Notes: a model not told the origin generated them from the letters alone. A stretch of DNA of 64,000 nucleotides from Desulfobacterales bacterium (GCA_016209225.1 JACQWO010000025.1:14548-78547), one strand, 5' to 3'. Counted from the stretch's first letter, positions 6,160-50,642 are shown. Numbers and translations: made by a program.

Positions 6160-6948
6160 TTACCCTCCCTGAAACTTGGCTTTTCTCTTTTTCATAAAGG
6201 CAGCTACACCTTCCCTGTAATCCTCACTCTCAACACAACGGACAGCCAAAGTCCGAACCTTTTCCATGTTCCGCTGCGAGGGAGGTTTCAGAATCTCACG
6301 AATAGAGACCTTGTGGGCAGCTAGACTTAGAGGCACGTTTTTGGCCAGTTCAAGAGCATATTCTCTAGTGTAACTTTCCAGCTTGGCCTTGGGGATTATC
6401 CGATTGATAAGGCCCATGTGATAGGTTTCTTCGGAATTGTAGGTCCGAGCTGTAAGCAGAATCTCAGCAGCGTTGGCTGGACCAACGAGATGAACCAGTC
6501 TTTCTGCCCCTCGCTCCAGAGAATAGGCAATGCCCAGGTGGGCAGCAGGGATGCCGAACTTAGCATCATCCGCAGCCAGACGTATATCACACATCATGGC
6601 TACTGAGCACCCACCACCCATACAAAAGCCATGGATCATAACAATCACGGGCTTTTCCATCTGACTCAAGCTAACCAGCGCCCTCTCGGCGGCTTGGTCA
6701 TATTCACCGCATGAGACCCCAAATCGCACTTTTTCAAACCGGGATATGTCAGCCCCTGAGACAAACGCTTCCTCTCCCGCCCCCCGTATGAGAAGAACCC
6801 TCAGAGTGGTATTCTTCACCACCTCCTCGACTAGCTTGGGCAGGGCCTGCCACATCTCCAGGCTGACAGCATTACGCATCTTGGGTCTGTTAAAAACGGT
6901 CCATGCCAAAGGGGGTTCCTTCTGAAGGTAAATGGGTTGATCTATCAT
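6160..6948 (-). CDS. Enoyl-CoA hydratase/isomerase (crotonase family)
   Basis: 262 aa. FVSGADI, the GGG oxyanion-hole region and MMCDIRLAA are canonical crotonase-fold motifs. Confidence 0.85.
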   Translation of the reverse strand: MIDQPIYLQKEPPLAWTVFNRPKMRNAVSLEMWQALPKLVEEVVKNTTLRVLLIRGAGEEAFVSGADISRFEKVRFGVSCGEYDQAAERALVSLSQMEKPVIVMIHGFCMGGGCSVAMMCDIRLAADDAKFGIPAAHLGIAYSLERGAERLVHLVGPANAAEILLTARTYNSEETYHMGLINRIIPKAKLESYTREYALELAKNVPLSLAAHKVSIREILKPPSQRNMEKVRTLAVRCVESEDYREGVAAFMKKRKAKFQGG

Positions 6949-7073
6949 TACATCACTCCTTTAACAGATCGATACAAGTCTGATGGACTTTTTGCGAAGC
7001 CATAAAGTTTCGGTAAACAACCATTGTAACTTCTGCTATAACTTCAGAAAACATAATACTACTTTTATTGAAG

Positions 7074-7112
7074 ATATGCCATCTATATGTCCCTTTGGTA
7101 ACATTGTCAATA
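7074..7112 (-). promoter_or_regulatory. Candidate sigma70 promoter for the crotonase gene
   Basis: Minus strand reads TTGACA (complement of 7107-7112), a 17-nt spacer, then TATAGAT (complement of 7083-7089). It lies about 125 nt upstream of the ATG at 6948. Confidence 0.3.
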
Positions 7113-7245
7113 ATTGCTTGTAATTGCATGATAATTTGAGAACCGTTTCTACTACGTAACCTATTACGTCAAGAATAGGCAAAGCTCCTTTATTCGTTTG
7201 AAAGAGAGACAGCAGGGAGTCAGAGAGAATTACTAAAAAATTTTC

Positions 7246-8514
7246 TCATACACACTCCTTCATCTCCCACCCGCCATTTTTTCTAACCAGTAAAATCAAC
7301 AAAAGCCCAACAGCAGCCATAGCGGCACTAATCACGAAGGCATAATCATAGGTACCTGTCCTGTCCCGAAGTATACCGGTAACCCAGTGAACCAGGATGG
7401 CCCCCAGGCCATAAAAGGGCGTCCATGCCCCTATAACGGTACCCATCATTTTCCTTGGGAAATAGTCCCCTGCACAAGCCCCATAGATGGGAAATGTTGC
7501 TCCGTAAAAAATTGCCACCCCTCCCACAAGGGCATACAGCATTACCCATGAATCTCCGGTGAAGAGGATTCCCGACATAAAGGCAGCGATAAAGGAGTTG
7601 GAAATAATGATAGTCCTTTTTCGACCGACATAGTCGGACAGGGGTAAGATCGTTAAAACTCCTGCCACCTGACAAATACCGTGCACTGTTGCCAGAAAGC
7701 TTGCCTTTTCCAGAGACAGTCCAATCTGGTATTTAGCATAGTCCACCATAAAAGTAGTAAGGCCGTAGAGGCTGTAAGATATGCAAAAATAGGAGAACCC
7801 AATAAGCCAGAACCTGCTATCCTTTAAAACTATAGAGAGAGAACCGCCCCTGGATTGTGCCAACACGTCTATGGTGTTGACTTGGGATGTTTCCCTCTGT
7901 CCCCAGGGCAAGTGCCCGCAGTTCTCGGGGTCACTTCTAAGTAACAGACCGTTGATAATCACCATCACCAGCGCCCCGGCTCCTAAAAAATACCAGCCAT
8001 AACGCCAGTTGAAGTTGAGCACTATCCATGGAAAGGATACTCCCATGGTTGCGAACCCAAACCCGTATCCTGTGGAGAGTATGCCCAGAGCCAGCCCTCT
8101 GCGGTTTGGAGAGAACCATCGCTGAACTACGGTAATTACCGGTGTCCACATCCCCGTGGCACCAAGGCCGGCTATGGCGTAAAAGAGGCAGGCCTCCCAG
8201 AGGGTTTTTGCCGTTCCCATCAGGAGGACGCCAAGGCTGAGGATGAGACAGCAGGCTGTAATCACACGACGTGCTCCAAGTCTGTCGGTCAGATAACCGG
8301 TAAGGGGGGTCAGGGCGATATAGGAGAAGAGGTAGGAATTATAGATAGATCCGCCGGCAGTTCGATCGAAACCAAGAGTGCGAATCATCTCTGGAAGAAC
8401 AACTCCGTATCCGAGGCGGACAGAATAGTTGATAAAAAGATTGACAAAGCAGGTTGCCAGGATGATCCATGCCCAGTGAAAAGTTTCTCCTTTTTCTACA
8501 ACTTTTTTCAACAT
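7246..8514 (-). CDS. MFS transporter
   Basis: 422 aa with about 12 predicted TM segments. The MFS signature region GYLTDRLGARRV sits between TM2 and TM3. Confidence 0.8.
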   Translation of the reverse strand: MLKKVVEKGETFHWAWIILATCFVNLFINYSVRLGYGVVLPEMIRTLGFDRTAGGSIYNSYLFSYIALTPLTGYLTDRLGARRVITACCLILSLGVLLMGTAKTLWEACLFYAIAGLGATGMWTPVITVVQRWFSPNRRGLALGILSTGYGFGFATMGVSFPWIVLNFNWRYGWYFLGAGALVMVIINGLLLRSDPENCGHLPWGQRETSQVNTIDVLAQSRGGSLSIVLKDSRFWLIGFSYFCISYSLYGLTTFMVDYAKYQIGLSLEKASFLATVHGICQVAGVLTILPLSDYVGRKRTIIISNSFIAAFMSGILFTGDSWVMLYALVGGVAIFYGATFPIYGACAGDYFPRKMMGTVIGAWTPFYGLGAILVHWVTGILRDRTGTYDYAFVISAAMAAVGLLLILLVRKNGGWEMKECV

Positions 8515-13870: not shown

Positions 13871-14452
13871 ATGAGAGGAAAAAATATAATTATCAGCATG
13901 GCAATCGTTTTTTTCTTGTTTTCCTTGCTGTTAAAGCCCACCGTTGCGTCCGAAGAAAATATTTCTAGCTATCATGAAACAATTTCTGTCCTTCGAGAAC
14001 TATATAAAGATGAGACTACTGCCTACAAGACTTATTCAGTATTTGCAAAGAAGGCCATGGAAGAAAAATATGATAGCGTTGCTCGACTTTTTAGTGCATT
14101 AAGCGAATCTGAATCAGTTCACGCACGTAATTTCAAAAGTATTTTGGAGGAAATAGGTGTTACATTAGAAGAATTTCCAGAACCCGATATTAAAGTAAAG
14201 ACCACGAAAAAAAATCTAAAATTTTCTCTAAACACGGAACTTTCCGAGATTGACACTACGTATCCAGGATTTATTGAAAGAATAAAGCCAGAGGGCAATG
14301 AAAGGGCTTTGGTAGATATAACTTATGCATGGAAAGCAGAGATGCAGCACCGGGATTTGATAAAAGGGGGAAAGTCAGCCATTTGGCTTTTATTTGGGAA
14401 GATTGCCGAGGACGATTTGGGGACGTTGTTACTTACGTTGCAAAACTCTTGA
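13871..14452 (+). CDS. Secreted ferritin-like / rubrerythrin-family diiron protein
   Basis: Signal peptide MRGKNIIISMAIVFFLFSLLL. Two E..H-type ferritin-like motifs (ALSESESVHARNF and AEMQHRD). Start chosen at the ATG with the RBS GGGGGAAAC. Confidence 0.5.
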   Translation: MRGKNIIISMAIVFFLFSLLLKPTVASEENISSYHETISVLRELYKDETTAYKTYSVFAKKAMEEKYDSVARLFSALSESESVHARNFKSILEEIGVTLEEFPEPDIKVKTTKKNLKFSLNTELSEIDTTYPGFIERIKPEGNERALVDITYAWKAEMQHRDLIKGGKSAIWLLFGKIAEDDLGTLLLTLQNS

Positions 14453-14483
14453 CAGCGCTGTCAGAAGTTGGTAGAATTACGTT

Positions 14484-15455
14484 ATGCCACGCCAAGCCCG
14501 CTTAGATATCCCCGGCGCCCTGCACCATATCATGGTACGGGGGATCGACAAATCAAACATCTTCCGCGATACTCAGGACAAAGCCCGGTTCCTTGAATGT
14601 CTCGGGCAGAACGTCCAGGACGCCAAATGTTCTGTTTACGCATGGGTGCTCATGGACAACCATGTTCATATACTGTTCCGGAGCGGACAAGGCGGCATCT
14701 CATCTGTCATGAGAAAGCTCCTTACCTGGTACGCCCAATACTTCAACCGCAGGCACGGCCGAAAAGGACATCTCTTTGAAAACCGTTATAAATCCATCCT
14801 GTGCGACGAAGATAATTACCTCCTTGCCCTTGTCCGTTACATCCATCTCAACCCCGTTCGGGCAGAGATCATTCAGACCATGACAGAGATGGACAAATAC
14901 CCATGGAGCGGCCATCCAGCTATTATTGAAAAGGCAAAATACCCATGGATGGATACTGCAACGGTATTGGCGCAATTCGGAGGCATGAAAAGAAAAGCCA
15001 CTGCAGAATACCGGCGGTTTATGCAGGAAGGCATGAATCAGGGACATGAGCCCCAATATTCCGGTGGCGGGCTTGTACGGAGCCTCGGAGGGTGGTCCAA
15101 TGTCCTCTCTATGAGACGGAAAGGCCGGAAGGAAGAGACAGACGAGCGGATCCTTGGGAGTGGTGATTTCGTGCAGCAAGTAATAACGGAGGCAGAAGAC
15201 AAGTCGCTTCGGCAGATGAAGCTCAAAAGATCAGGATTGACGCTGATAAAAATCATCGAACAAGAATGCAAGAAAGGGCAGATCAGCCGGATAGAGCTGG
15301 AGAGCGGCAGTCGCCGGTCAAAGGTAAGCTGGACGCGTGGACAGATCGCCCGACGCGGCATTGAAGAGATCGGCCTCTCAGCGGCTGAGATTGCGCGACA
15401 TCTCGGCGTAGCCACGTCAAGCATAACGCGGGCGATTGCAAAGATGGAAGTCTGA
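14484..15455 (+). CDS. IS200-like Y1 (HUH) transposase domain fused to a DnaA domain-IV-like HTH; RayT/REP-associated tyrosine transposase-like
   Basis: The N-terminus PGALHHIMVRG...AWVLMDNHVHIL (HuH motif)...RYIHLNPVRA matches the Y1 transposase fold. The C-terminus GLSAAEIARHLGVATSSITRAI resembles the DnaA C-terminal HTH. It is the first gene of the GC-rich island. Confidence 0.7.
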   Translation: MPRQARLDIPGALHHIMVRGIDKSNIFRDTQDKARFLECLGQNVQDAKCSVYAWVLMDNHVHILFRSGQGGISSVMRKLLTWYAQYFNRRHGRKGHLFENRYKSILCDEDNYLLALVRYIHLNPVRAEIIQTMTEMDKYPWSGHPAIIEKAKYPWMDTATVLAQFGGMKRKATAEYRRFMQEGMNQGHEPQYSGGGLVRSLGGWSNVLSMRRKGRKEETDERILGSGDFVQQVITEAEDKSLRQMKLKRSGLTLIKIIEQECKKGQISRIELESGSRRSKVSWTRGQIARRGIEEIGLSAAEIARHLGVATSSITRAIAKMEV

Positions 15456-15506
15456 ACTACAACGCAACGCAACGTAAGTAACAACGTCCCCAAAGTCCTT
15501 ATTTAA

Positions 15507-21783: not shown

Positions 21784-21829
21784 CCAATCAATCCAGCGAA
21801 TCGGCCTTAAATCCGGCCTCCCGCTGATT

Positions 21830-21925
21830 GCTTCGTTTCCCCCCTCGCTCCGCTCGGGGGGAATGCGGCGCTGAGCGGTTGTGCCTGCCCTCCGCTTCGC
21901 TCCGGGAGAACCAGGCACAGGAGAC
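21830..21925 (-). repeat. REP-like structured element, 5'-truncated copy in inverted orientation
   Basis: The reverse complement equals the right two-thirds of the 125-bp unit: GTCTCCTGTGCCTGGTTCTCCCGGAGCGAAGCGGAGGGCAGGCACAACCGCTCAGCGCCGCATTCCCCCCGAGCGGAGCGAGGGGGGAA. Confidence 0.6.
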
Positions 21926-22304: not shown

Positions 22305-22419
22305 GGAGGTAAAACATGGAAACCAAGACGTACTTGGGGCCGTTGTTCCTATTTGATCTTTTTCTTGTGTGAGAGGTGGCATATACGAACGCAGAGATCG
22401 GAGAGATTTTTGGAAATAA

Positions 22420-22824
22420 TCAAAACTTTGTAAAGGCTCCTGATATGCTTATCTCTTTCTGTATTCCGTATTTCTCCATCCTCCGACGGAGGCTGTTTCT
22501 GTTTATACCCAGTAATGTAGCTGCTTTAACCTGATTCCCTTTTGTTTTTTCCAGTGCCTTTATTACCAGTATCTTTTCCAGATAAGAGAACGTGTCTAAA
22601 TCTTCTTTTGTCGAGAGGGAAGATGCCACTTTGAGAAGTCTATCTAAAATCCCATTCAACCCATAGTCCAGATTCTCCTCTTCCCTTAAGGAATAAACTC
22701 CGTTCGTATCCTCCTCAAAAGAGATGTCTTCAGGGATGATAATATTACTCTTACATCTAATAATAGCCTTCTTGACAACATTCTCAAGCTCTCTGACATT
22801 GCCGGGCCAATGATAACCCATCAA
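22420..22824 (-). pseudogene. Sigma54-dependent activator, C-terminal fragment (134 aa): end of the AAA+ domain plus the Fis-type HTH
   Basis: About 80% identical to the C-terminus of the intact regulator gene 27840-29285 (YHWPGNVRELENVVKKAIIRCKS...LLGINRNSLRRRMEKYG). There is no receiver or Walker region, so I call it a remnant. Confidence 0.6.
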
Positions 22825-22893
22825 CAGTATTTGGGGTCAGGCTTCGGTAATTAGGTATTGACATTCTTATCGTTCTTTGATAGACAGTTATTT

Positions 22894-23868
22894 ATGGCTC
22901 GTAGACCTCGAATTCATTTTCCAGGAGCTTTGTATCATGTCATCACTAGAGGGAATCGAAGACAGGGGATATTCCTTGATGAAAAAGATTTGGAGAAGTT
23001 CCTTGCCTATATTGTGGATTATAAGTCCAGACACTCTTTCCATCTTTATGCTTACGCTTTGATGAAAAATCATCTCCACCTTCTTGTGGAGGTTGAAGAG
23101 ACACCTTTGAGCAAAATCATGCAATCTCTCTTGTTTCGTTATACGCGTTATTTTAATAGGCGATATGGTGAGGTGGGGCATCTTTTTCAGGGACGATATA
23201 AGGCGATTGTGTGTGACAAGGATGCTTATCTTTTAGAATTGGTTCGCTATATTCATTTGAACCCCGTTCGGGCAAAAATTGTGAATATGCCTGAAGATTA
23301 TGGGTGGACTGGTCACCTCAGTTATTTGGGAAGAGGTAGGAATGATTTAATTGATGAGGGTTTTATGTTAGATCAATTGAGCAGGGACATATCTTTGGCG
23401 AGGCGGAGATACCGTCAATTTGTATGGGAAGGGATTGCAAGTGGGCACCAGGAGAAATACTACGAGGTCAAAGATCAGCGGTATCTTGGAGAGGACAGTT
23501 TCATTAATCAGATCGAAGTGGGAAGGAACAAGCCTGAAAGCTGGGTTTATGATGTTCCACTGGAAGCTATATCTCAGGAGGTGAGCAGAGTTACAGGGAT
23601 TACGGAAGAGAGGTTGTACTCTGGGACGAGAGATCGCGAAGGGGCGCGTGGGAGGGGCTTAGTGGCATACTTGGCCAAGACGGTATCGAATTATATGGTG
23701 AAAGATATAGCCAGCCATTTCAAGCGGAGTCCTGTTACTATAGGAGAGGCAATCATCAAGGTTGAAGATATTCTGAAGAGTGATAGTTCATTCGAGAAGG
23801 AGCTAACACGCATGGGGGAGAATCTGATCCAGGGGAGGAAGAGAAAATACCGTATTTCCGTTGCCTGA
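22894..23868 (+). CDS. IS200-like Y1 (HUH) transposase domain fused to a DnaA domain-IV-like HTH (second, low-GC copy)
   Basis: MARRPRIHFPGALYHVITRGNRRQ...YALMKNHLHLL...RYIHLNPVRA. The C-terminus LVAYLAKTVSNYMVKDIASHFKRSPVTIGEAIIKVEDIL resembles DnaA domain IV. The track ORF starts at a TTG at 22858. Confidence 0.7.
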   Translation: MARRPRIHFPGALYHVITRGNRRQGIFLDEKDLEKFLAYIVDYKSRHSFHLYAYALMKNHLHLLVEVEETPLSKIMQSLLFRYTRYFNRRYGEVGHLFQGRYKAIVCDKDAYLLELVRYIHLNPVRAKIVNMPEDYGWTGHLSYLGRGRNDLIDEGFMLDQLSRDISLARRRYRQFVWEGIASGHQEKYYEVKDQRYLGEDSFINQIEVGRNKPESWVYDVPLEAISQEVSRVTGITEERLYSGTRDREGARGRGLVAYLAKTVSNYMVKDIASHFKRSPVTIGEAIIKVEDILKSDSSFEKELTRMGENLIQGRKRKYRISVA

Positions 23869-23932
23869 CCCCATTCTTCTGGACCCCATTCTTCTGCATT
23901 CTTCCTTGACCCCATTCTTCCTAAATTTTTCA
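23869..23932 (+). repeat. Three direct repeats of GACCCCATTCTTC immediately 3' of the Y1/DnaA-IV gene
   Basis: tgACCCCATTCTTCtggACCCCATTCTTCtgcattcttccttgACCCCATTCTTCc. Confidence 0.5.
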
Positions 23933-27746: not shown

Positions 27747-27839
27747 ATGCCCCGACAAGCAAGATTGGATGCGCAGGGAACCCTTCACCATGTGATGATC
27801 CGCGGTATTGAGAGAGGCACGATATTTTGTAATAAATAA
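27747..27839 (+). pseudogene. Y1/IS200-like transposase-like gene, N-terminal 30-aa remnant
   Basis: MPRQARLDAQGTLHHVMIRGIERGTIFCNK*. The first 20 aa are homologous to the N-terminus of the 14484 gene. The stop abuts the stop codon of the sigma54 regulator. Confidence 0.5.
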
Positions 27840-29285
27840 TCAAAACTTTGTGAAAGCTCCTAATATGCTTATCTCTTTCTGTACTCCGTATTTCTCCATC
27901 CTCCTACGGAGACTGTTCCTGTTTATACCCAAAAGCTTTGCTGCCTTCACCTGATTGCCTTTTGTTCTCATAAGCGCCTTTATTACAAGCATTTTCTCCA
28001 GAAATGAGAACACATCCTTATCCCCGGTTAGCGATAAGGGGATTTCTTCAAGAAGTCTATCTAAGATTCCATTCAACCCTGAAACCAGCCCCCCTTCTTT
28101 TTCCAGGGTATGAGCCCTATTTGTTTCCTCCTCAAAAGAGAGGTCTTCCTGGACAATGACTTCCGACTTACATCTAATAATAGCCTTCTTGACAACATTC
28201 TCAAGCTCTCTGACATTGCCGGGCCAATGATAACCCATCAATACCTTGATCGCCGATGGAGCAATATCTTTTATTTCTTTATTCAACTCCGGGCTTGACT
28301 TTTTTATGAAATACCTCACTAAATCCGGTATGTCGCCCTTCCTTTCCCTTAAGGGGGGGAGGTAAATAGAGACTACGTTCAAACGGTAATAGAGGTCTTC
28401 CCTGAACCTTCCCTCAGCGACTTCCTTTCTCAGATCCTTATTGGTGGCGGCTATTACCCTGATGTCAACCTTTATTGTTTCATTTCCTCCCAATCTTTCA
28501 AACTCCATCTCCTGTAATACACGAAGCATCTTGGCTTGAAGAAGAAGGGACATGTCCCCTATTTCATCCAAAAGTATGGTGCCCCCACTTAACTGTTCAA
28601 GCTTCCCGATCTTTCTTAGCCGGGCGTCGGTAAATGCCCCTTTTTCATAACCAAAAAGCTCCGACTCCAGTAGATTGTCGGGTATGGCAGCACAGTTTAT
28701 TGCCATGAAGGGTTTGTCCCTTCTTGTGCTGTGTTTATATATAGCCCTGGCAACCAGCTCTTTTCCAGTGCCACTTTCTCCAGTTAAAAGAACCGTTATA
28801 TCTTTCCCGGCCACCTGCCCTATGTACTTATATACCTTCTGCATTTCAGGCGAGTTTCCAACCATGATGTCCCCGTTTAGTTCCCCCTCTTGGGAAGGGG
28901 ACAGGGCAACCTTTCTCTTCATCATCTCTGTTACGGATAAGGCGCTGGATATGGTTGCCTTCATCCAATCGATATCAAAGGGTTTCAGGGTGTAGTCGTA
29001 TGCTCCTAACCTCATGGCCTCCACCGCGGTTTCCATAGTTCCATACGCCGTCATAATTATAATATGGAGTTTGGGATCTATATTCTTGATTTTTCTCAGG
29101 GTGGTGATTCCATCTATCCCGGGCATCCTGATATCCATTATTACCAGGTCTGGGGTATCCCTGCTGATGATGTCTACGGCCTCTTCTCCGGACGAGGCAG
29201 AAAGGACAACATAACTCTTGGAGAAGACCTTTTTAAAAGAGTAATGAACATTGGGCTCATCATCAACGATCAGTATCTTTTTCAT
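27840..29285 (-). CDS. Sigma54-dependent Fis-family response regulator (NtrC-like)
   Basis: Receiver domain (DDEPNV...DLVIMDIRMPGIDG). AAA+ sigma54-interaction domain with Walker A GESGTGKE and a GAFTDA variant of GAFTGA. C-terminal Fis HTH. Confidence 0.85.
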   Translation of the reverse strand: MKKILIVDDEPNVHYSFKKVFSKSYVVLSASSGEEAVDIISRDTPDLVIMDIRMPGIDGITTLRKIKNIDPKLHIIIMTAYGTMETAVEAMRLGAYDYTLKPFDIDWMKATISSALSVTEMMKRKVALSPSQEGELNGDIMVGNSPEMQKVYKYIGQVAGKDITVLLTGESGTGKELVARAIYKHSTRRDKPFMAINCAAIPDNLLESELFGYEKGAFTDARLRKIGKLEQLSGGTILLDEIGDMSLLLQAKMLRVLQEMEFERLGGNETIKVDIRVIAATNKDLRKEVAEGRFREDLYYRLNVVSIYLPPLRERKGDIPDLVRYFIKKSSPELNKEIKDIAPSAIKVLMGYHWPGNVRELENVVKKAIIRCKSEVIVQEDLSFEEETNRAHTLEKEGGLVSGLNGILDRLLEEIPLSLTGDKDVFSFLEKMLVIKALMRTKGNQVKAAKLLGINRNSLRRRMEKYGVQKEISILGAFTKF

Positions 29286-43971: not shown

Positions 43972-44334
43972 CTATGTACCTTGCAGCAACCGGAAGATAG
44001 GTTTCATCCAATAGGGCATGATGAAAACCTCCCCTGCCAAAGATAACCGCCATCCCTTGAGAAAGTTTATGTATCGGGTATATCGGTGTGCCTCTCCAAT
44101 TGCCCTTCTCAAGTCATCTTCCGAAGCCGGAATGGCAATAAGATGAACGTGGTTGGGCATCAGGCAGTAAGCCCATATCTCCACATTACACCGTTTGCAC
44201 CATTCAGACATGAGGGCTATATATTCCCTGTAATCTTCCTCTCTGAAAAAGGTCCGCTGTCTTCGATTGCCACGTTGTGTTATATGGTGGGGAAGCCCAG
44301 GTGAAACTACACGACCTATTCTCGCCATAGTCAA
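43972..44334 (-). CDS. IS200-like Y1 (HUH) transposase, short stand-alone form (RayT-like)
   Basis: PGLPHHITQRGNRRQ...AYCLMPNHVHLI...HRYTRYIN. It lacks the DnaA-like tail. About 350 nt from REP-like copy A. Confidence 0.6.
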   Translation of the reverse strand: MTMARIGRVVSPGLPHHITQRGNRRQRTFFREEDYREYIALMSEWCKRCNVEIWAYCLMPNHVHLIAIPASEDDLRRAIGEAHRYTRYINFLKGWRLSLAGEVFIMPYWMKPIFRLLQGT

Positions 44335-44442
44335 ATAATACTATCGCAAATCTCTCTTGTCAATAATTAGGTATTGAGTCCCCGGAATTCTGTTAAGGAC
44401 CGAGTCCCGAGATCGGATACAGTTCCCGGATCAATCCGTGCT

Positions 44443-44688: not shown

Positions 44689-44800
44689 AATGCGGCGCTG
44701 AGCGGTGTCCCGAAGGGACATCCGTCTCCTGTGCCTGGTTCTCCCTGAGAGAAGCGGAGGGCAGGCACAACCGCTCAGCGCCGCATTCCCCCTGAGGGTT
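44689..44800 (+). repeat. REP-like structured element, copy A
   Basis: AATGCGGCGCTGAGCGGTGTCCCGAAGGGACATCCGTCTCCTGTGCCTGGTTCTCCC...GAGGGCAGGCACAACCGCTCAGCGCCGCATT, with a variant 3' hairpin. Confidence 0.6.
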
Positions 44801-44874
44801 GAGCCGCCGAGTTTACGAGGTAGGCTCCACCCTCTTGTTGGGCCGGAGCGCTAGCGATCGGCTGTATTGATTTG

Positions 44875-45048
44875 TTATGCCAATTCTTTTATTATATGCT
44901 TTGCAAGGTTCTCATCAATCTCGCCATGTCTTGGAACAGGTTGTTTCTTGCCTGTTTTAGGATTCGCATAAAGATCGTGGCGGCCGCCGTGCCTCACAAG
45001 CACACACCCTACAGACAATATTCTCTTCAGCAATTCTTTTCTTTTCAT
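44875..45048 (-). CDS. hicA: HicA-family mRNA interferase toxin (57 aa)
   Basis: Hand translation of the minus strand gives MKRKELLKRILSVGCVLVRHGGRHDLYANPKTGKKQPVPRHGEIDENLAKHIIKELA. It forms an ATGA start/stop overlap with hicB. It is not in the ORF track because it is under 60 aa. Coordinates may be off by about 1 nt. Confidence 0.65.
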   Translation of the reverse strand: MKRKELLKRILSVGCVLVRHGGRHDLYANPKTGKKQPVPRHGEIDENLAKHIIKELA

Positions 45049-45242
45049 ACATTTATGGCAAGTTCTTTGATTTCGTGCTGCTCCGGGACATCTTCCAGTG
45101 TCATCATCGCGTAAGCGTCCTTCATGTTATCTTCAAGTTCTTCCAACGTCCCGCCTTGCGTCATTATTTCTGGATGTTCTAGGAGTTTCCCCACCCAAAA
45201 CTTTTCGCCTTTCCAATAGATCATTTTTAGCTTTGTTTCCAT
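45045..45242 (-). CDS. hicB: HicB-family antitoxin, short form
   Basis: KMIYWKGEKFWVGKLLEHPEIMTQGGTLEELEDNMKDAYAMM matches the HicB N-domain. Confidence 0.6.
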   Translation of the reverse strand: METKLKMIYWKGEKFWVGKLLEHPEIMTQGGTLEELEDNMKDAYAMMTLEDVPEQHEIKELAINV

Positions 45243-45529
45243 GCTGCAACCTCCTAAGCTTGGTATTTCTTTATCAATATAATATCACATGAAGTGAGGA
45301 TAGGAAATATCTTTTATAATCCTTGCCCAACGAGTCTGTAGAAAAAGTCCTTTTACAGGGGAGTAGTTTCCTGACCAAGACCGATTTTTTTTAGACTTTT
45401 AACTTAGCATAGACGATGCATTTTCCCGGCGGAGCATTATTGCCCTTCCTTCAATCTGTGAAGATATCGAGTGGCGTTGCTTTGTTAAGCTTCATCCCTG
45501 CTTTATCCGGTCTTCATCCTTTGGGTATA

Positions 45530-46137
45530 TCAGGCAAATCCCAAACCATACCTGTGTATCTTCTTCACATTGTGAATAATACAGAACAGATTCCACTGCA
45601 TGTTTACCTTTTTTTTACCCCGCAATGTGAAACGGTTAAGGCCAATAGCTGATGCGATATGGTCAAACGGCGGCTCACTTATTGCCGGCCGCATCCCGTA
45701 AAGAACTCTACCTGAAGCAGAGTCAATCTTCCGCTTCATTCTCTCTGTAAAGGTAATCTCGCCTTTTGCCGACCTTCCCACAAAATAAGCAACCTGCCGT
45801 ATCTCTGTACGCTCCGGATACCGCAGGCATTGGGAACGAAGGGCACATGGAAGGCAGACCGACTTGGGTCCCTTAAACTTATATGCCCGAAAGTTCTTCA
45901 CTACAACGTTGGCGCCGCTGCGGTAGAGTCGTTTACCTGCCGGGCATAAACAATAACGCAACTCTTTGTCAAAGATGAAGTCTTTGGTACTAAAAAGTGG
46001 AGTGTGTCCCTTCCGACCAGCTCGTTATCGATGAGATGATTCAGAGAGTATTCAAAGGTGCAGGGAAGGATTTGTTTCTCGAAATGGATGGGGATGAATT
46101 TACCTTGTTCGTATGAATAGGGTTTGTAACGTGCCAT
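45530..46137 (-). pseudogene. IS1182-family transposase remnant (N- and C-terminal pieces, frameshifted and internally deleted)
   Basis: The N-terminal piece MARYKPYSYEQGKFIPIHFEKQILPCTFEY and the C-terminal piece ...FTLRGKKKVNMQWNLFCIIHNVKKIHRYGLGFA match IS1182 transposase ends. Total coding is about 220 aa versus about 450 expected. Confidence 0.6.
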
Positions 46138-46253
46138 GCAACACCTCGGTAAATGGTTAAGCGGTTACCAACTCCAATGTTGCAGCAATATTACAATAAA
46201 ATGCTCATGGTTACAATCATTTTACCTCTATATCACCCTTTTCCTACAGATTC

Positions 46254-46380
46254 AACGCGGCGCTGAGCGGTGTCCCGAAGGGACATCCGTCTTCCTGTGC
46301 CTGGTTCTCCCGGAGCGAAGCGGAGGGCAGGCACAACCGCTCAGCGCCGCGTTCCCCCTGAGCGAAGCGAAGGGGGAATG
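46254..46380 (+). repeat. REP-like structured element, copy B
   Basis: AACGCGGCGCTGAGCGGTGTCCCGAAGGGACATCCGTCTTCCTGTGCCTGG...CAGGCACAACCGCTCAGCGCCGCGTTCCCCCTGAGCGAAGCGAAGGGGGAA. Confidence 0.65.
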
Positions 46381-46447
46381 ATAAAGTCACCTGCCAGTGT
46401 GAAGCGTAGCGAAACACCGGTCAGGTGGACTGACAGGTTGGGCGGGC

Positions 46448-46777
46448 TCAAAATGCAAATAGCCGTTGTAAGAGAGAAATAACCTCCAACTGAGTTTCTG
46501 AATCAATAGAACCAAGCTTTTTTATGAGTCGTGTTTTATCTATTGTTCGAATCTGATCCAAGACGATTTGCCCTTTTTTCTTTTTAAATTTGCATGATAT
46601 CCTTGTGGGATAGTCCTTGCCGGCAGTAGTCATCGGGGCAACTATAACGGTGCGGATATGCCGGTTCATTTCATCTGGCGAAATAATCACGCAAGGTCGC
46701 GTTTTCTGTATTTCAGAACCAACAGTAGGATCAAGATTGATCAAATACACATCGAATCGATTCACTACCATTGCCAT
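46448..46777 (-). CDS. mazF: MazF/PemK-family endoribonuclease toxin
   Basis: FDVYLINLDPTVGSEIQKTRPCVIIS is the canonical PemK/MazF motif. Confidence 0.8.
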   Translation of the reverse strand: MAMVVNRFDVYLINLDPTVGSEIQKTRPCVIISPDEMNRHIRTVIVAPMTTAGKDYPTRISCKFKKKKGQIVLDQIRTIDKTRLIKKLGSIDSETQLEVISLLQRLFAF

Positions 46778-47019
46778 TCCTCTTCATCCCAGGAATTTGA
46801 AATATTATCGTTTCCGTCTATCAATGTGTCATGACCGTTTTGAGCCATTGTTCTAAAAGCATTATCCCAACCTGGCCTTGGATTTGAGATCGGGCGAATA
46901 ATGATTTGGTTTTTCTCTACTTCAAGCTCAACGTCCTCGATAATTCCTGTTTGCTCAAGTATAGGTTTTGGAATACGGACACCTTGGGAATTGCCAATTT
47001 TTACAACACGTACTCTCAT
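46765..47019 (-). CDS. mazE: MazE/AbrB-SpoVT-family antitoxin
   Basis: VKIGNSQGVRIPKPILEQ is a swapped-hairpin AbrB/MazE motif. Overlaps mazF by 13 nt. Confidence 0.7.
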   Translation of the reverse strand: MRVRVVKIGNSQGVRIPKPILEQTGIIEDVELEVEKNQIIIRPISNPRPGWDNAFRTMAQNGHDTLIDGNDNISNSWDEEEWQW

Positions 47020-47050
47020 GGTTTACCTCCTTGACTTGATAGGTGTCTAC

Positions 47051-47079
47051 ATTGTAATTACATCGGGATTGAATGTCAA
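47051..47079 (-). promoter_or_regulatory. Candidate sigma70 promoter for mazEF with an operator-like palindrome TGTAATTACA overlapping the -10
   Basis: Minus strand reads TTGACA, a 17-nt spacer, TACAAT, then RBS AGGAGG and ATG. Confidence 0.5.
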
Positions 47080-47360
47080 GGATTTATTGTATTTTTCCCC
47101 AGTTTTTGCCGCCCAACGGGCAGCGAGATGAGCCGCCCCCCAACCGACCAAGCGGAGTAATTACTCAAAAATTTCCTCTTTACCTAAAAGAAATGGAATT
47201 TCGTTACAATAATAGGCATCGTTCGATATTTATGTTTAGCCATTCGGAATTCTCCTTATATTATTGTTAAGTAAAAATTGTAAAAATGAAAGCAATGGGG
47301 ATCAAGTCTGCGTTTGACTCTTAATGGGAATATTCAAAGGTCAAACGTAGACCTGAGCCT

Positions 47361-47663
47361 TTATCCCACTTTGTGGAATTGCTCAAAGTGATGCACCCAA
47401 CATTCCTTAACATATTTTTCCATTCCATGTGGTATTAGGGCTCGTTCCCAAGCCTCACCACAAAATGCAACCAATGCGTCTTGATTTTCCCATGTGGTTA
47501 TTAAAACATACTCATCTTTATCTTGATCCATTACCTTACCAGCCGACAAGGAAACTAATCCTTTTTGTGCTTTTACTAACGGGATAGAAATTTGGTTAAA
47601 ATCATTTTCGAAATCTTCTTTCAATCCTTTATTAATCCTAACTCTAAAAATCCTTACTATCAT
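47361..47663 (-). CDS. Hypothetical protein, ABM (antibiotic biosynthesis monooxygenase / Dabb)-like fold
   Basis: 100 aa. EYVLITTWENQDALVAF is ABM-like. The N-terminus MIVRIFRVRI could alternatively be a displaced ParE C-terminal piece. Confidence 0.35.
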   Translation of the reverse strand: MIVRIFRVRINKGLKEDFENDFNQISIPLVKAQKGLVSLSAGKVMDQDKDEYVLITTWENQDALVAFCGEAWERALIPHGMEKYVKECWVHHFEQFHKVG

Positions 47664-47691
47664 TTAATGTCTCCAATCTTGATTGGTGAAT

Positions 47692-47856
47692 TCATCCTAT
47701 ATTTCCAATGAATGGAAAATCCTTAACACTTCTCGCTACATCAAGAATTTTCGTAACAACTGCACGTGCATAAAACTCAGAATCCCTTGTAATATAATCT
47801 GAAATTGATTCAATATCTTCAATGGCTTCTGGGGACCAGACTACTTTATAGGTCAT
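47692..47856 (-). pseudogene. RelE/ParE-family toxin, truncated at 54 aa
   Basis: MTYKVVWSPEAIEDIESISDYITRDSEFYARAVVTKILDVARSVKDFPFIGNIG* matches ParE/RelE N-terminal halves. The C-terminal catalytic half is missing. An 11-codon ORF follows (MNSPIKIGDIK), joined through ATGA overlaps. Confidence 0.45.
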
Positions 47857-48029
47857 CTGCTGAATCTCTTCTCTACTTCTTCTTGGCTCATCGTTCCCTC
47901 TTTCTCTGCCCTATCGATTCCACGTTGAATCTTCTCGATTACATATAGGTGGTATTGGATATCTTCAAACGTGCAACTATCTGGCAGCTTATCTATTAAT
48001 GATACGGCTTCTTCTTTCGCAGTGTTCAT
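47853..48029 (-). CDS. ParD/RelB-like antitoxin partner (58 aa)
   Basis: Hand-translated as MNTAKEEAVSLIDKLPDSCTFEDIQYHLYVIEKIQRGIDRAEKEGTMSQEEVEKRFSR. It forms an ATGA overlap with the toxin ORF. Confidence 0.5.
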   Translation of the reverse strand: MNTAKEEAVSLIDKLPDSCTFEDIQYHLYVIEKIQRGIDRAEKEGTMSQEEVEKRFSR

Positions 48030-48058
48030 ACTTGTCTCCTTTCTATGATTTTACACAT

Positions 48059-48184
48059 AATGCGGCGCTGAGCGGTGTCCCGAAGGGACATCCGTCTCCT
48101 GTGCCTGGTTCTCCCGGAGCGAAGCGGAGGGCAGGCACAACCGCTCAGCGCCGCATTCCCCCCGAGCGGAGCGAGGGGGGAATG
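48059..48184 (+). repeat. REP-like structured element, copy C (most complete consensus-like copy)
   Basis: AATGCGGCGCTGAGCGGTGTCCCGAAGGGACATCCGTCTCCTGTGCCTGGTTCTCCCGGAGCGAAGCGGAGGGCAGGCACAACCGCTCAGCGCCGCATTCCCCCCGAGCGGAGCGAGGGGGGAATG. The outer 18-bp inverted repeat is perfect. Inner hairpins: GTCCCgaaGGGAC and TGTGCCTG...CAGGCACA. A 3' hairpin follows: CCCCCC...GGGGGG. Confidence 0.65.
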
Positions 48185-48253
48185 TTTTGCATAACTGGCT
48201 GGCAATGGAGCACAGCGGAATTGCCAGCCCGAGTTGATGCGGTTGTTATGCTT

Positions 48254-49450
48254 TTATTTTAACAAGTTTCTAATTGCATTTCCCAGTTTCCGGATTCCAA
48301 TCTGAATGGTTCCTTCATCTACGCATGAGAAATTAAGTCGCAAAGTTCGTGTTCTCATCTTCTTGACATAAAAAGGATCACCCGGCACGAATACAACATT
48401 GTCTTTCACTGCCAGATCAAATAAATCAAGTGATGCTACATTTTGCGGTAATTCAGCCCATAAAAACATTCCACCCTCTGGTTTGGTATAAGTTACACTT
48501 GGGGGGAAATAATTTTGTATACTATTCAACATGGCCCGGCATTGATTCCCATATGCCTCTCTGATTCTGCTTATATGTTTATCAATATCATTATCTTTTA
48601 AGTACTGATAAATAATACTCTGCGTAAAATGGCTTGTGTGGAGGTCAGCTGCCTGTTTTGCAATAATAAGTTTCTCCATGATGTGTTTTGGAGTAACAAT
48701 CCACCCTAACCGGAATCCGGGAATAATAGTTTTGGAAAAAGAACCCAACAGTACAGTATTATCCGGTAATAAATCCTTGAAGGACTGTTTGCTTTCACCA
48801 GTAAATCGTAAATCACCATATGCATCATCTTCAATTAATATTATATTGGTTTCTTGGAGTATTTCCGAAACCTCAAGTCTGTTTTCTTGGGAATAGGAAA
48901 TGCCGGACGGATTTTGGAAATTTGGAACTGTATACATCAGTTTTGGTTTATGAGAGGATATTATTTTCCGCAGTCTCTGTGTATCCATTCCTTCTTCGGA
49001 GACCGGAACAGGGAAAAACTCCGGTCTGTATATTGAAAATGCCTGGATAGCTCCCAAATAGCCGGGTTCTTCTATTATCACACCATTGCCGTCGTTAAGA
49101 AGAATTTTTCCCAGAAGATCTAATCCTTGCTGAGAACCGCTTGTAATCAGTATGTTTTCTACAGGTATATCAAGATTTTTCGTTTGATGATACCGCTCTG
49201 CGATATATTCTCTCAATTTCAGATAACCTTCTGAATTGCTATATTGGAAAATATCCTTCCCATGCATACTAAATACCTTATTTGTCGCCTTCTTAATTTC
49301 CTCAGCGGGGAAAAGCTCTCTGTTGGGAAGTCCGCCAGCAAAAGAAATCACTGCAGGATCCAAAGCAACCTTGAGTATTTCACGAATGAATGAACGTGGA
49401 ACGTCCGTAATTCTATCAGAAAATATGCTATCCATATTATTTTCCTTCAT
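48254..49450 (-). CDS. PLP-dependent aminotransferase (class I/II; LysN/2-aminoadipate aminotransferase-like)
   Basis: DVPRSFIREILKV N-terminal motif and the SFSKT PLP-lysine region. Start set at MKENNMDS with RBS AGGAAAC. The track ORF extends into REP-like copy D. Confidence 0.8.
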   Translation of the reverse strand: MKENNMDSIFSDRITDVPRSFIREILKVALDPAVISFAGGLPNRELFPAEEIKKATNKVFSMHGKDIFQYSNSEGYLKLREYIAERYHQTKNLDIPVENILITSGSQQGLDLLGKILLNDGNGVIIEEPGYLGAIQAFSIYRPEFFPVPVSEEGMDTQRLRKIISSHKPKLMYTVPNFQNPSGISYSQENRLEVSEILQETNIILIEDDAYGDLRFTGESKQSFKDLLPDNTVLLGSFSKTIIPGFRLGWIVTPKHIMEKLIIAKQAADLHTSHFTQSIIYQYLKDNDIDKHISRIREAYGNQCRAMLNSIQNYFPPSVTYTKPEGGMFLWAELPQNVASLDLFDLAVKDNVVFVPGDPFYVKKMRTRTLRLNFSCVDEGTIQIGIRKLGNAIRNLLK

Positions 49451-49465
49451 GTTTCCTATTTGCAT

Positions 49466-49596
49466 AATGCGGCAGTTGAGCAGTGCCCGAAGGGCATCTG
49501 TCTCGAACTCCTGGTTCTCCCCGCAGCGGAGCGAAGGGGAAATCAGGAGTTCGCTGCTCAACTGCCGCATTCTCCCCGAGCGAAGCGAGGGGAGAA
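49466..49596 (+). repeat. REP-like structured element, copy D (divergent, with compensatory stem changes), plus an extra GC hairpin to about 49650
   Basis: AATGCGGCAGTTGAGCAGTGCCCGAAGGGCATCTGTCTCGAACTCCTGG...CAGGAGTTCGCTGCTCAACTGCCGCATTCTCCCCGAGCGAAGCGAGGGGAGAA. Every stem retains complementarity despite substitutions. Confidence 0.55.
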
Positions 49597-49787
49597 CGCC
49601 TGAATTAAGCCGCGCCGCGAAGCGGCGTCGGCTTGAATGAATTGTTAGGCCTGCCTGAGACAGGCCTTTCTGTTGATTGCACGGATAACCAGACCATAAG
49701 AAATGAATTCAGGCGCAATCACATCTTGACGAGCCACCAGCTGTTGCGCGGCACAGCCGTTGACGATCCGCCGGATGCGCCAACGCA

Positions 49788-50534
49788 TCACCGCGGCATC
49801 AGCGCGAACACACCCCAGCCCAGGTATTCACGCGTGTAAGCGGCGTAGCGCTCGGGTTCCGAGGTCAGTTTGGCTCGAACATCTTTCGCGAACTCGTCGT
49901 CAGGATTGGCTTCAAGCCATCGGCGCATGGTGAGCCATTTGGTCGCCTCGTATCTGTCCCAGCCGTCTTGGTCAGCCAGAACCATTTCAACGACGTCGTA
50001 GCCAAGGTGGCCGAAAGACGCGAGAAGTTCTGGAAGCATGAGAAAATCGGAGATTGAGTTGGCAAGACACCCCTTGGCAACATCTTCCGTCGGCGGTAAC
50101 TGCCGCCAGTAGGGCTCGCCGATGAGGATGATCCCTCCGGTGCGCAGGCTCCGCGTCAGAAGCTCGATAGTGCCGATGACTCCCCCGGCGATCCAAGTGG
50201 CACCGACACAGGCTGCCACACTGGCCTTCTCGTCAGAGACATAGCCGGAAGCATCGCCATGGATGAACTTGACTTGATCGGCGACGCCGAGTTCTACAGC
50301 ACGGAGTTTCGCTTGCTCGGTGAACAACTGGCTCATGTCGATGCCGGTGCCGATGACGCCGTGATCGCGTGCCCAGGTGCACAGCATCTCCCCCGAACCG
50401 CTGCCGAGGTCGAGCACTCGGGCCCCCGATTCCAGACGCAGCGCCGCGCCGAGAGTGGCGAGCTTTTCGGGTGTGATCGGGTTGTGGATGCGGTGAGCAC
50501 TTTCAGTGATGTTGAATATCCGTGGGATGTCCAT
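49788..50534 (-). CDS. Class I SAM-dependent methyltransferase (GC-rich, likely acquired)
   Basis: VLDLGSGSGEM is motif I. This single gene is about 60% GC, against about 45% background. Confidence 0.75.
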   Translation of the reverse strand: MDIPRIFNITESAHRIHNPITPEKLATLGAALRLESGARVLDLGSGSGEMLCTWARDHGVIGTGIDMSQLFTEQAKLRAVELGVADQVKFIHGDASGYVSDEKASVAACVGATWIAGGVIGTIELLTRSLRTGGIILIGEPYWRQLPPTEDVAKGCLANSISDFLMLPELLASFGHLGYDVVEMVLADQDGWDRYEATKWLTMRRWLEANPDDEFAKDVRAKLTSEPERYAAYTREYLGWGVFALMPR

Positions 50535-50642
50535 TGTGAAAAATTTCCTTACGGGTGTGAATAGATTCGGTCATGGCCTAACGATTTGAACTCACTGGTG
50601 GCGGGTAGCCATCCAGTGGAGTGATTGGTTGTGTGAGGTGTT

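Follow-up and report, generated by a model that had tools for sequence, protein, structure and literature searches.

A structured repeat in a Desulfobacterales cassette array is probably an integron attC-type site packaged as a gene-less mini-cassette

What is a highly structured repeat of about 125 bases doing, several times over, among the toxin-antitoxin genes of a Desulfobacterales bacterium? The repeat lies in a stretch of 64,000 nucleotides from assembly GCA_016209225.1 (JACQWO010000025.1:14548-78547), hereafter the window. An earlier note on this DNA had suggested a repetitive extragenic palindrome (REP) or its paired form, the REP doublet forming hairpins (REPIN), a miniature inverted-repeat transposable element (MITE), or a small RNA, terminator or insulator. 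Here, we conclude, with a probability of about 0.85, that the repeat belongs to the attC type of integron recombination sites and forms a gene-less mini-cassette within a cluster of attC sites lacking an integron integrase (CALIN). A gene-less mini-cassette family with this unusual three-way structure appears to be undescribed; searching the literature and its supplements with the repeat sequence returned unrelated primer matches only, and no paper with the sequence was found.

Results

Four full copies and one truncated copy share a conserved fold

The four co-oriented copies listed in the earlier note (A to D in Table 1) were all found, together with its inverted, 5'-truncated copy. Covariance model R1, built from 32 family members and run with filters off, recovered these five copies and no sixth one above E = 0.1 in the 64 kb; all five sit within two cassette clusters. 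The outer arms are as perfect as had been described, with 18-nt arms that are 100% complementary in 4/4 full copies, and the arm 16-mer occurs seven times in the window (0.19 expected by chance). Folded as single-stranded DNA, the units form the nested hairpins already noted, in which a small C-rich hairpin precedes a long stem bearing two inner ones, at folding z-scores of −4.5 to −8.7. The compensatory changes proposed for copy D are also there: both arms and the long inner hairpin stem differ from those of the other copies, and pairing is still complete.

That structure is conserved over sequence, as the same note had argued, is borne out both by covariation and by the recurrence of one fold across subfamilies. 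Pairing is retained in 94% of the cells of the family alignment (32 members), in which 11 pairs (40 cells) have changed on both sides; this count was reached by 0/500 shuffles, and slid controls gave 0–5 pairs only. Covariance model searches revealed further subfamilies with different arms and inner stems; in all, at least five sequence subfamilies share a single architecture. Each of nine representatives, with 54–86% mutual identity, folds alone into this architecture; the representatives were folded singly, and the cross-subfamily MAFFT alignment was out of structural register. As structure rather than sequence is kept, the repeat points to a functional folded nucleic acid.

The unit is a complete cassette bounded by crossover points

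In cassette orientation, the unit of about 125 bases reads R↓TTC(C/T)CCCC - 11–13 nt loop - GGGG(G/A)GAAY - GCG - GCGCTGAGCGGT - (inner hairpin 2) - NGGAGACGGAT - (inner hairpin 1) - ACCGCTCAGCGC - CGC - R↓TTRRRY, where the arrow marks the crossover point. Its start, TTC(C/T)CCCC, adjoins the crossover base of the attC before it. By pairing with the unit's own R''-like box, GGGGAAY, its first bases form the small C-rich companion hairpin; since they are complementary to that box, the unit is a complete cassette, the sole cargo of which is the 11–13-nt hairpin loop. The companion hairpin is followed by a three-way junction on a perfectly paired stem of 15–16 bp; the junction is composed of inner hairpin 2, an invariant 10-nt linker (GGAGACGGAT) and inner hairpin 1. 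Invariance extends to one arm of inner hairpin 2, the 3' arm (GGGGAGAAC), although its partner arm varies. Mini-cassette D shows the full layout, with a companion hairpin TTCTCCCC-loop-GGGGAGAAT, the long stem with two inner hairpins and the end ...GCCGCA↓TT. Mini-cassette A lacks the 5' arm of the companion hairpin and is joined to the truncated attC of the hicBA cassette, and the truncated copy of the second cluster lacks, past GGAGAC, its linker, its inner hairpin 1 and its 3' arm. A small open reading frame (ORF) starting from GGAGACGGATG inside the unit was rejected, as its ATG is not conserved (ATA or ACC in L004, in L009 and in the L045 subfamily; related loci carry L numbers throughout).

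Sequence conservation ends exactly past ...GCCGC-R, and the following seven bases vary. The R' of 57 copies reads (G25/A32)-T-T-R-K-R-Y, and R covaries with the Y of AAY, with 26 cases of AAT/ATT, 22 of AAC/GTT and four discordant. On the upstream side, G precedes the unit in 43/48 unique contexts. The rule that ties each start to its own site extends through the array: in five ORF cassettes of the window (c0, methyltransferase, aminotransferase, mazEF and hicBA) the start hexamer (TTNNNN) is the exact complement of the cassette's own R'', and the match is 6/6 in mini-cassettes B, C and D as well. An exact complement has a chance of 1/4096 per cassette, and start hexamers complementary to their own R'' are the signature of integron cassettes.

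The boundaries can be read directly from a comparison with locus L007, which carries a 94.5% identical methyltransferase cassette (6707-7694; a third copy, in L045 at 6842-7992, is 91% identical). In L007 the unit precedes this cassette, and after the cassette's attC come G↓TTAGGC and another cassette, whereas in the window an ordinary attC stands before the methyltransferase cassette and the unit after it. The homology between the two loci begins exactly at TT 50581 and stops at GTT 49597-49595. The unit thus switches sides with breaks at TT, which identifies it as a discrete module with crossover points on both sides. L007 is a 1.0-Mb contig binned as Candidatus Bathyarchaeota, and the presence of the methyltransferase cassette there could reflect either cross-domain cassette sharing or a mis-binned contig.

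A further marker of the boundary is provided by the attC that directly precedes mini-cassette D. It is ~90% identical, in cassette orientation, to the psp/aadA2 junction attC of class 1 integrons and matches more than 5000 plasmid records; when the two are aligned, the class 1 crossover G↓TT falls on G↓TTCTCCCC, the first base of unit D.

Related loci connect the unit with integron integrases

The family is carried by about 80 related loci in several phyla. Of 21 matches in an arm-based scan of species-representative genomes, 16 were true loci, located in metagenome-assembled genomes (MAGs) of Nitrospirota, Desulfobacterota, Omnitrophota and Pseudomonadota and in one archaeal bin (Bathyarchaeota), and a central-motif scan of metagenomes yielded about 58 further loci. 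Matches in L003, L006, L011, L018 and L019 were rejected as family members, being an unrelated palindrome with just the 12-nt arm in common, and those in L047, L070 and L072 were chance matches within coding DNA. Identical or near-identical copies (up to 100%) are present in MAGs of different lineages; mini-cassette C and the L012 copy are 100% identical, downstream R' hexamer excepted.

The contexts upstream of the unit fall into two groups, namely diverse canonical attC hairpins ending ...G↓TT and hairpin-less, attI-like sequences ending ...ATAAC-N2-4-G↓TT (17/50 unique contexts). The hicBA attC of the window resembles the attC upstream of the unit in L007. In L004, a TIGR02249 integron integrase (375 bits, cutoff 265) is encoded about 400 bp from the unit and divergently from it, and the hairpin-less sequence between the integrase gene and the unit holds three CTAATAAC direct repeats. 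Integrase remnants occur in eight further loci, including L002, L007, L010, L021, L025, L039 and L075, and the N-terminal domain of intI adjoins the first cassette in L014.

In L014 and in L039/L049, no companion hairpin accompanies the three-way-junction part, which lies beside intI remnants. The site stands immediately after an ORF (one of 172 aa in L014, one with a TIR domain in L039), and its R'' boxes are the canonical GGCTAAC and GTCTAAC where mini-cassettes have GGGGAAY. In these loci, the three-way-junction part is the attC of the first ORF cassette. The first cassette of L039 (1353-2513), which carries this three-way-junction attC, encodes a 386-aa, defence-like TIR-domain protein.

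Short forms of the unit (L023 3182-3263, L026 8575-8645, L060, L061 10513-10593, L065 and L067) are without the 5' arm of the long stem, and in them the companion hairpin runs straight into the apical part of inner hairpin 2, to which it is nearly identical. They likewise start exactly at G↓TT. Their sequence is consistent with a deletion between these two elements, which are direct repeats of each other.

Another conserved sequence of ~95 nt, ending ...GGAGATATACAGAAACCATAGAATAACTTG↓TT, was observed upstream of the unit in L010 (5584-5700), L017, L050, L064, L075, L081 and L083. Its opposite strand holds a conserved 20-codon ORF (M-x-x-KVC-x-x-E-x-VPFLI-x-[YW]-L-x-S), and its last 27 nt are present in inverted orientation in L021.

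The unit does not have the marks of an insertion element

A unit found always at the same point of attC and attI-like sites might instead be a MITE-like, non-autonomous insertion element that is aimed at attC/attI and is not itself an integrase substrate; IS1111-attC, relatives of group IIC-attC introns and the adjoining element of the IS1182 insertion sequence (IS) family are its candidate parents. An IS1182-family end (CTGTAGAA...) does abut the 3' boundary of the unit, at 46249 and in L012, L013, L025 and L073, and the unit has none of the bulged bases of canonical attCs. We nevertheless regard this explanation as very unlikely. The unit has no IS-type terminal inverted repeats and is not similar to the IS remnant, and there is no target-site duplication: a model with RTT duplicated on both sides was ruled out, since the two flanking bases often differ, as they do around copy D (G↓TT upstream, A↓TT downstream). 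Furthermore, the same structure serves as an ordinary attC of ORF cassettes, with canonical R'' boxes, in L014 and L039, and the unit, like every cassette, has first bases that pair with the R'' box of its own attC.

The IS1182-family element itself is decayed. It occupies 45336-46249 (−), retains transposase fragments of 78 and 143 aa and the ends CTGTAGGAAAAG.../...CTTTTTCTACAG, and lies 6 nt past the crossover of mini-cassette B. The same IS end is found at the 3' boundary of the unit, as RTTGARN followed directly by CTGTAGAA, in the four related loci just named. Its recurrence at this boundary suggests that the IS targets, or travels with, this attC.

Loop sequences and stability favour the bottom strand

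On the cassette bottom strand, which corresponds to the window + strand, every hairpin loop of the unit is either GCGNAGC or C-GAA-G, with N taking all four bases, and the canonical attCs in these arrays are capped by the same loops. DNA mini-hairpins of unusual stability are formed by d(GCGNAGC) and GNA triloops, and a GAA loop of the GNA kind is present in the class 1 aadA-type attC. The bottom strand was the more stable one in 9/9 representatives, as calculated without a triloop bonus in the energy model. Loops and stability thus favour the bottom strand, which fits a function as folded single-stranded DNA.

This strand preference also bears on the proposal that the unit is primarily an RNA element (an intercistronic terminator, an insulator, an mRNA stabiliser or a small RNA) with its position in the array being secondary. 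Such a role would make sense of a very stable structure in the 5' leader of downstream cassette genes, and attC sites are known to affect the expression of downstream cassettes. Gene-less cassettes of Vibrio act as promoters (PMC11014356). However, promoter and terminator scans detected neither a U-tract terminator nor a sigma-70-like promoter in the copies, and a gathering search of the window against Rfam, which has no attC family, matched one tRNA only, so that the small RNA or terminator of the earlier note was not upheld. The conserved triloops of the non-coding (bottom) strand are GNA, a type that is stable as DNA, and an RNA role does not fit, because the loops of the transcript read UNC. 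Conservation, moreover, ends at recombination crossover points and not at transcript features. We therefore assign an RNA element as the primary identity of the unit very little probability.

The four full copies are embedded in an ordinary CALIN

Between 44.8 and 51.1 kb, every gene lies on the minus strand with hairpin sites between the genes, and each repeat, read along the minus strand, comes after a variable hairpin; roughly two in three of the array's cassette junctions are followed by the unit. The features are collected in Table 1. The attCs were mapped by hand, as AAC...GTT constrained-fold scans were swamped by the big units. HicAB, MazEF and ParE-like proteins are encoded beside the copies, so the placement of the repeat between toxin-antitoxin modules stands as described, with the amendment that the modules are themselves integron gene cassettes. 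A cassette array with no integrase in the window makes 44.4–51.2 kb a CALIN, and the array as a whole is an ordinary one with toxin-antitoxin cassettes.

Two imperfect palindromes lie downstream of the ABM-domain ORF, at 47199-47274 and 47299-47359, one containing ACTTAAC, which resembles an R'' box, and the other being an inverted repeat of 20 bp; both are probably degenerate attCs of the ParE/ABM cassette region.

Table 1. Cassettes, recombination sites, repeat units and Y1 genes of the window. Positions count from the first base of the window, and cassettes of the main array are given in their order along the minus strand.
Feature	Position	Strand	Signals or support
attC of first cassette c0 (146-aa ORF)	50582..50634	-	R'' ACACAAC, R' GTTAGGC; start TTGTGT 51161-51156
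Methyltransferase cassette body, start TTAGGC	49651..50581	-	Pfam
Canonical attC of methyltransferase cassette	49597..49650	-	R'' GCCTAAC
Mini-cassette D, divergent subfamily	49467..49596 (repeat copy 49466-49596)	-	Covariance model 96.5 bits
Aminotransferase cassette body, start TTATGC	48252..49466	-	Pfam Aminotran_1_2
attC of aminotransferase cassette	48195..48251	-	R'' GCATAAC, R' GTTATGC; complement of start TTATGC 49466-49461
Mini-cassette C	48061..48182 (repeat copy 48059-48184)	-	Covariance model 116 bits
Cassette(s) with ParE-like toxin, 58-aa partner and ABM-domain ORF; internal attC(s) degenerate	47117..48060	-	Pfam
mazEF cassette, own TTGACA-17-TACAAT promoter	46444..47116	-	
attC of mazEF cassette	46373..46443	-	R'' GCCCAAC; complement of start TTGGGC 47116-47111
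Mini-cassette B, stem base AAC/GTT	46256..46372 (repeat copy 46254-46372)	-	Covariance model 108 bits
hicBA cassette	44834..45330	-	
attC of hicBA cassette, 3' end truncated	44797..44833	-	R'' GCCCAAC; complement of start TTGGGC 45330-45325
Mini-cassette A	44691..44796 (repeat copy 44689-44796)	-	Covariance model 109 bits
attC-like hairpin ending ...CTTCG↓TT, upstream of truncated copy	21784..21835	+	
Truncated mini-cassette, second, + oriented cassette cluster	21836..21925	+	Covariance model 47 bits
Y1 genes	43972-44334; 22858-23868; 14484-15455		

RayT-like genes lie close by and carry repeats of their own

The Y1 genes near the repeat are RayT-like, as had been noted, scoring 70–78 bits against NF047646 (cutoff 80). 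Their proximity speaks for a REP/REPIN-type element mobilised by neighbouring RayT-like Y1 (HUH) transposases: the window holds three Y1 genes or fragments (35–78 bits against the same model), the unit has Y1 genes or fragments downstream of it at the two array ends and in L012/L062, L021, L034, L043 and L083, and the unit, like REP elements, is a multicopy GC-rich palindrome able to fold as single-stranded DNA, the substrate type of HUH enzymes. But the intact Y1 genes are bracketed by unrelated inverted repeats of their own and not by the unit, with 23-bp repeats (GGGGACGTTGTTACTTACGTTGC) around 14484-15455 and GGGGTCAGGC/GCCTGACCCC around 22858-23868. Within the window the unit is confined to cassette arrays, its copies show neither a GTAG-type 5' motif nor an inverted-pair (REPIN) arrangement, and most of the ~80 loci have no Y1 gene, though their contigs are short. 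Copies that are 100% identical across MAG lineages are unlike vertically inherited REPINs, and a true integron integrase adjoins the unit in L004. With its ends at integron crossover points and its adherence to the cassette complementarity rule, the unit behaves as an independent cassette, and we consider the REP/REPIN reading of the earlier note very unlikely.

Several further observations concern the Y1 regions. Those at 14423-15493, 22833-23875, 43972-44400 and 27747-27827 are RayT-like with a C-terminal DnaA-type helix-turn-helix, and three direct GACCCCATTCTTC repeats follow the second Y1 gene (22833-23875 region). Y1 fragments mark the distal end of both cassette clusters, and in L012 the 3' end of a Y1 gene (91% identity) borders on the attI-like sequence, at the place expected for intI. 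A ~400-bp duplication with 80–84% identity (22414-22824 and 27834-28241), which includes the 3' end of the gene for a sigma-54 response regulator (27840-29285), has a Y1 gene or fragment beside both copies. Elsewhere, the unrelated palindrome of L003, L006, L011, L018 and L019 is a family of 74–79 nt, (GTA)GGTTGGCGCTGAGCGGTAGCGAAGCCCAAC...GTTGGGCTTCGCTACCGCTCAGCGCCAACC(TAC), with at least five copies in the Gammaproteobacteria MAG CAVYYU01 and GTAG-like flanks, which may be a true REP-type family.

Discussion

The unit resembles integron attC sites (59-base elements) in several properties. It stands at the cassette boundaries of co-oriented ORFs, it has triplets of the AAC...GTT type, in half of the copies as AAT/ATT, at the base of an imperfect palindrome with the crossover between R and TT, and its cassette start complements its own R'' box. 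Its structure is kept rather than its sequence, its folding features favour the bottom strand, and related loci tie it to an integron integrase and attI-like repeats. The closest parallels are long chromosomal attC types such as the Vibrio cholerae repeats of 123–126 bp, which have branched, variable terminal structures.

Several observations weigh against this assignment. Extrahelical bases and an unpaired spacer are regarded as key to strand choice by integron integrases, and canonical attCs in the same loci have two single-base bulges 6 bp apart together with an unpaired spacer. The long stem of the unit, by contrast, has neither: it spans 15–19 bp and is perfect in the main family, with one conserved T.C mismatch in the L023/L010/L033 subfamily; the L014 and L039 forms have an AA/CGC spacer. 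In half of the copies, AAT/ATT replaces the conserved AAC/GTT. The three-way junction and its linker are sequence-invariant within the main family, and the unit is nearly always ORF-less, an ORF being attached in only about 3/80 loci, not the usual pattern of an attC family. In about six loci a RayT-like Y1 gene is found downstream of the unit, and in the 64 kb of the window no intI or intI remnant was found (Pfam on 37 ORFs; tblastn to E 5). Owing to the departures from canonical attCs (bulges, AAT/ATT, the invariant linker and the lack of an ORF), membership of the attC class is not clean; the same departures are also what is new about the family.

As a cassette, the unit has known counterparts. 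Gene-less integron cassettes have been described in Treponema and Vibrionaceae (PMC6557892; PMC11014356), where they consist of non-coding DNA with promoter activity (PMC11014356). Like them, the unit is a full cassette with its own attC and no protein gene, situated among ORF cassettes. Unlike them, it has a cargo of just 11–13 nt that closes a hairpin, with no promoter-like site, and the same unit is multicopy within arrays and common to several phyla. The array shows no essential difference from a CALIN as defined in the IntegronFinder paper, a cluster of attC sites lacking an integron integrase (PMC4889954): it comprises at least five cassettes bounded by attCs, toxin-antitoxin cassettes among them, and no intI is within reach. 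It is already known that Archaea, Nitrospirota and Desulfobacterota share attCs.

If the unit is an attC-type mini-cassette, its bottom strand (the window + strand, in which the earlier note gave the unit) would fold as single-stranded DNA, as attC sites do, and an integron integrase supplied in trans would bind the stem and exchange strands at R↓TT. The unit would then be excised as a ~125-nt circle and re-inserted at attI or at another attC. Mobility of this kind would account for the occurrence of the unit after many unrelated attC and attI-like sites. Unless the genome codes for an integrase at some other site, the window's copies are probably immobile relics. The unit could be merely selfish or could also modulate the array, for example by sequestering the R' box of the upstream attC or through an RNA structure between cassettes.

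A more far-reaching possibility, which we put forward tentatively and consider rather less likely than its opposite, is that the unit represents an autonomous lineage of 'empty' integron cassettes, attCs with essentially no cargo. Such a lineage would have kept one architecture through at least five sequence subfamilies, would manage without the bulged bases regarded as necessary for attC function, and would have spread over bacterial phyla and into archaeal bins, with frequent positions directly at attI-like sites. As a self-propagating parasite or as a punctuation mark of the integron, the unit could lock the upstream attC by sequestering its R' box, and it could supply a portable attC for joining new genes, with a bearing on the unsolved problem of cassette genesis.

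The family also matters beyond this array. Repeats of this type give rise to spurious ORFs and can pass for REP elements. Through its class-1-like attC, the locus connects environmental arrays with clinical integrons and, through the methyltransferase cassette and the archaeal-binned contig, with cross-domain cassette sharing. A widespread natural attC-type site without extrahelical bases or unpaired spacer offers a ready test of the rules of strand choice. Finally, a cassette of ~125 nt that consists of nothing but a recombination site is a near-minimal mobile unit of the integron system, one that could be a selfish element, a stabiliser of the array or a portable attC for cassette genesis.

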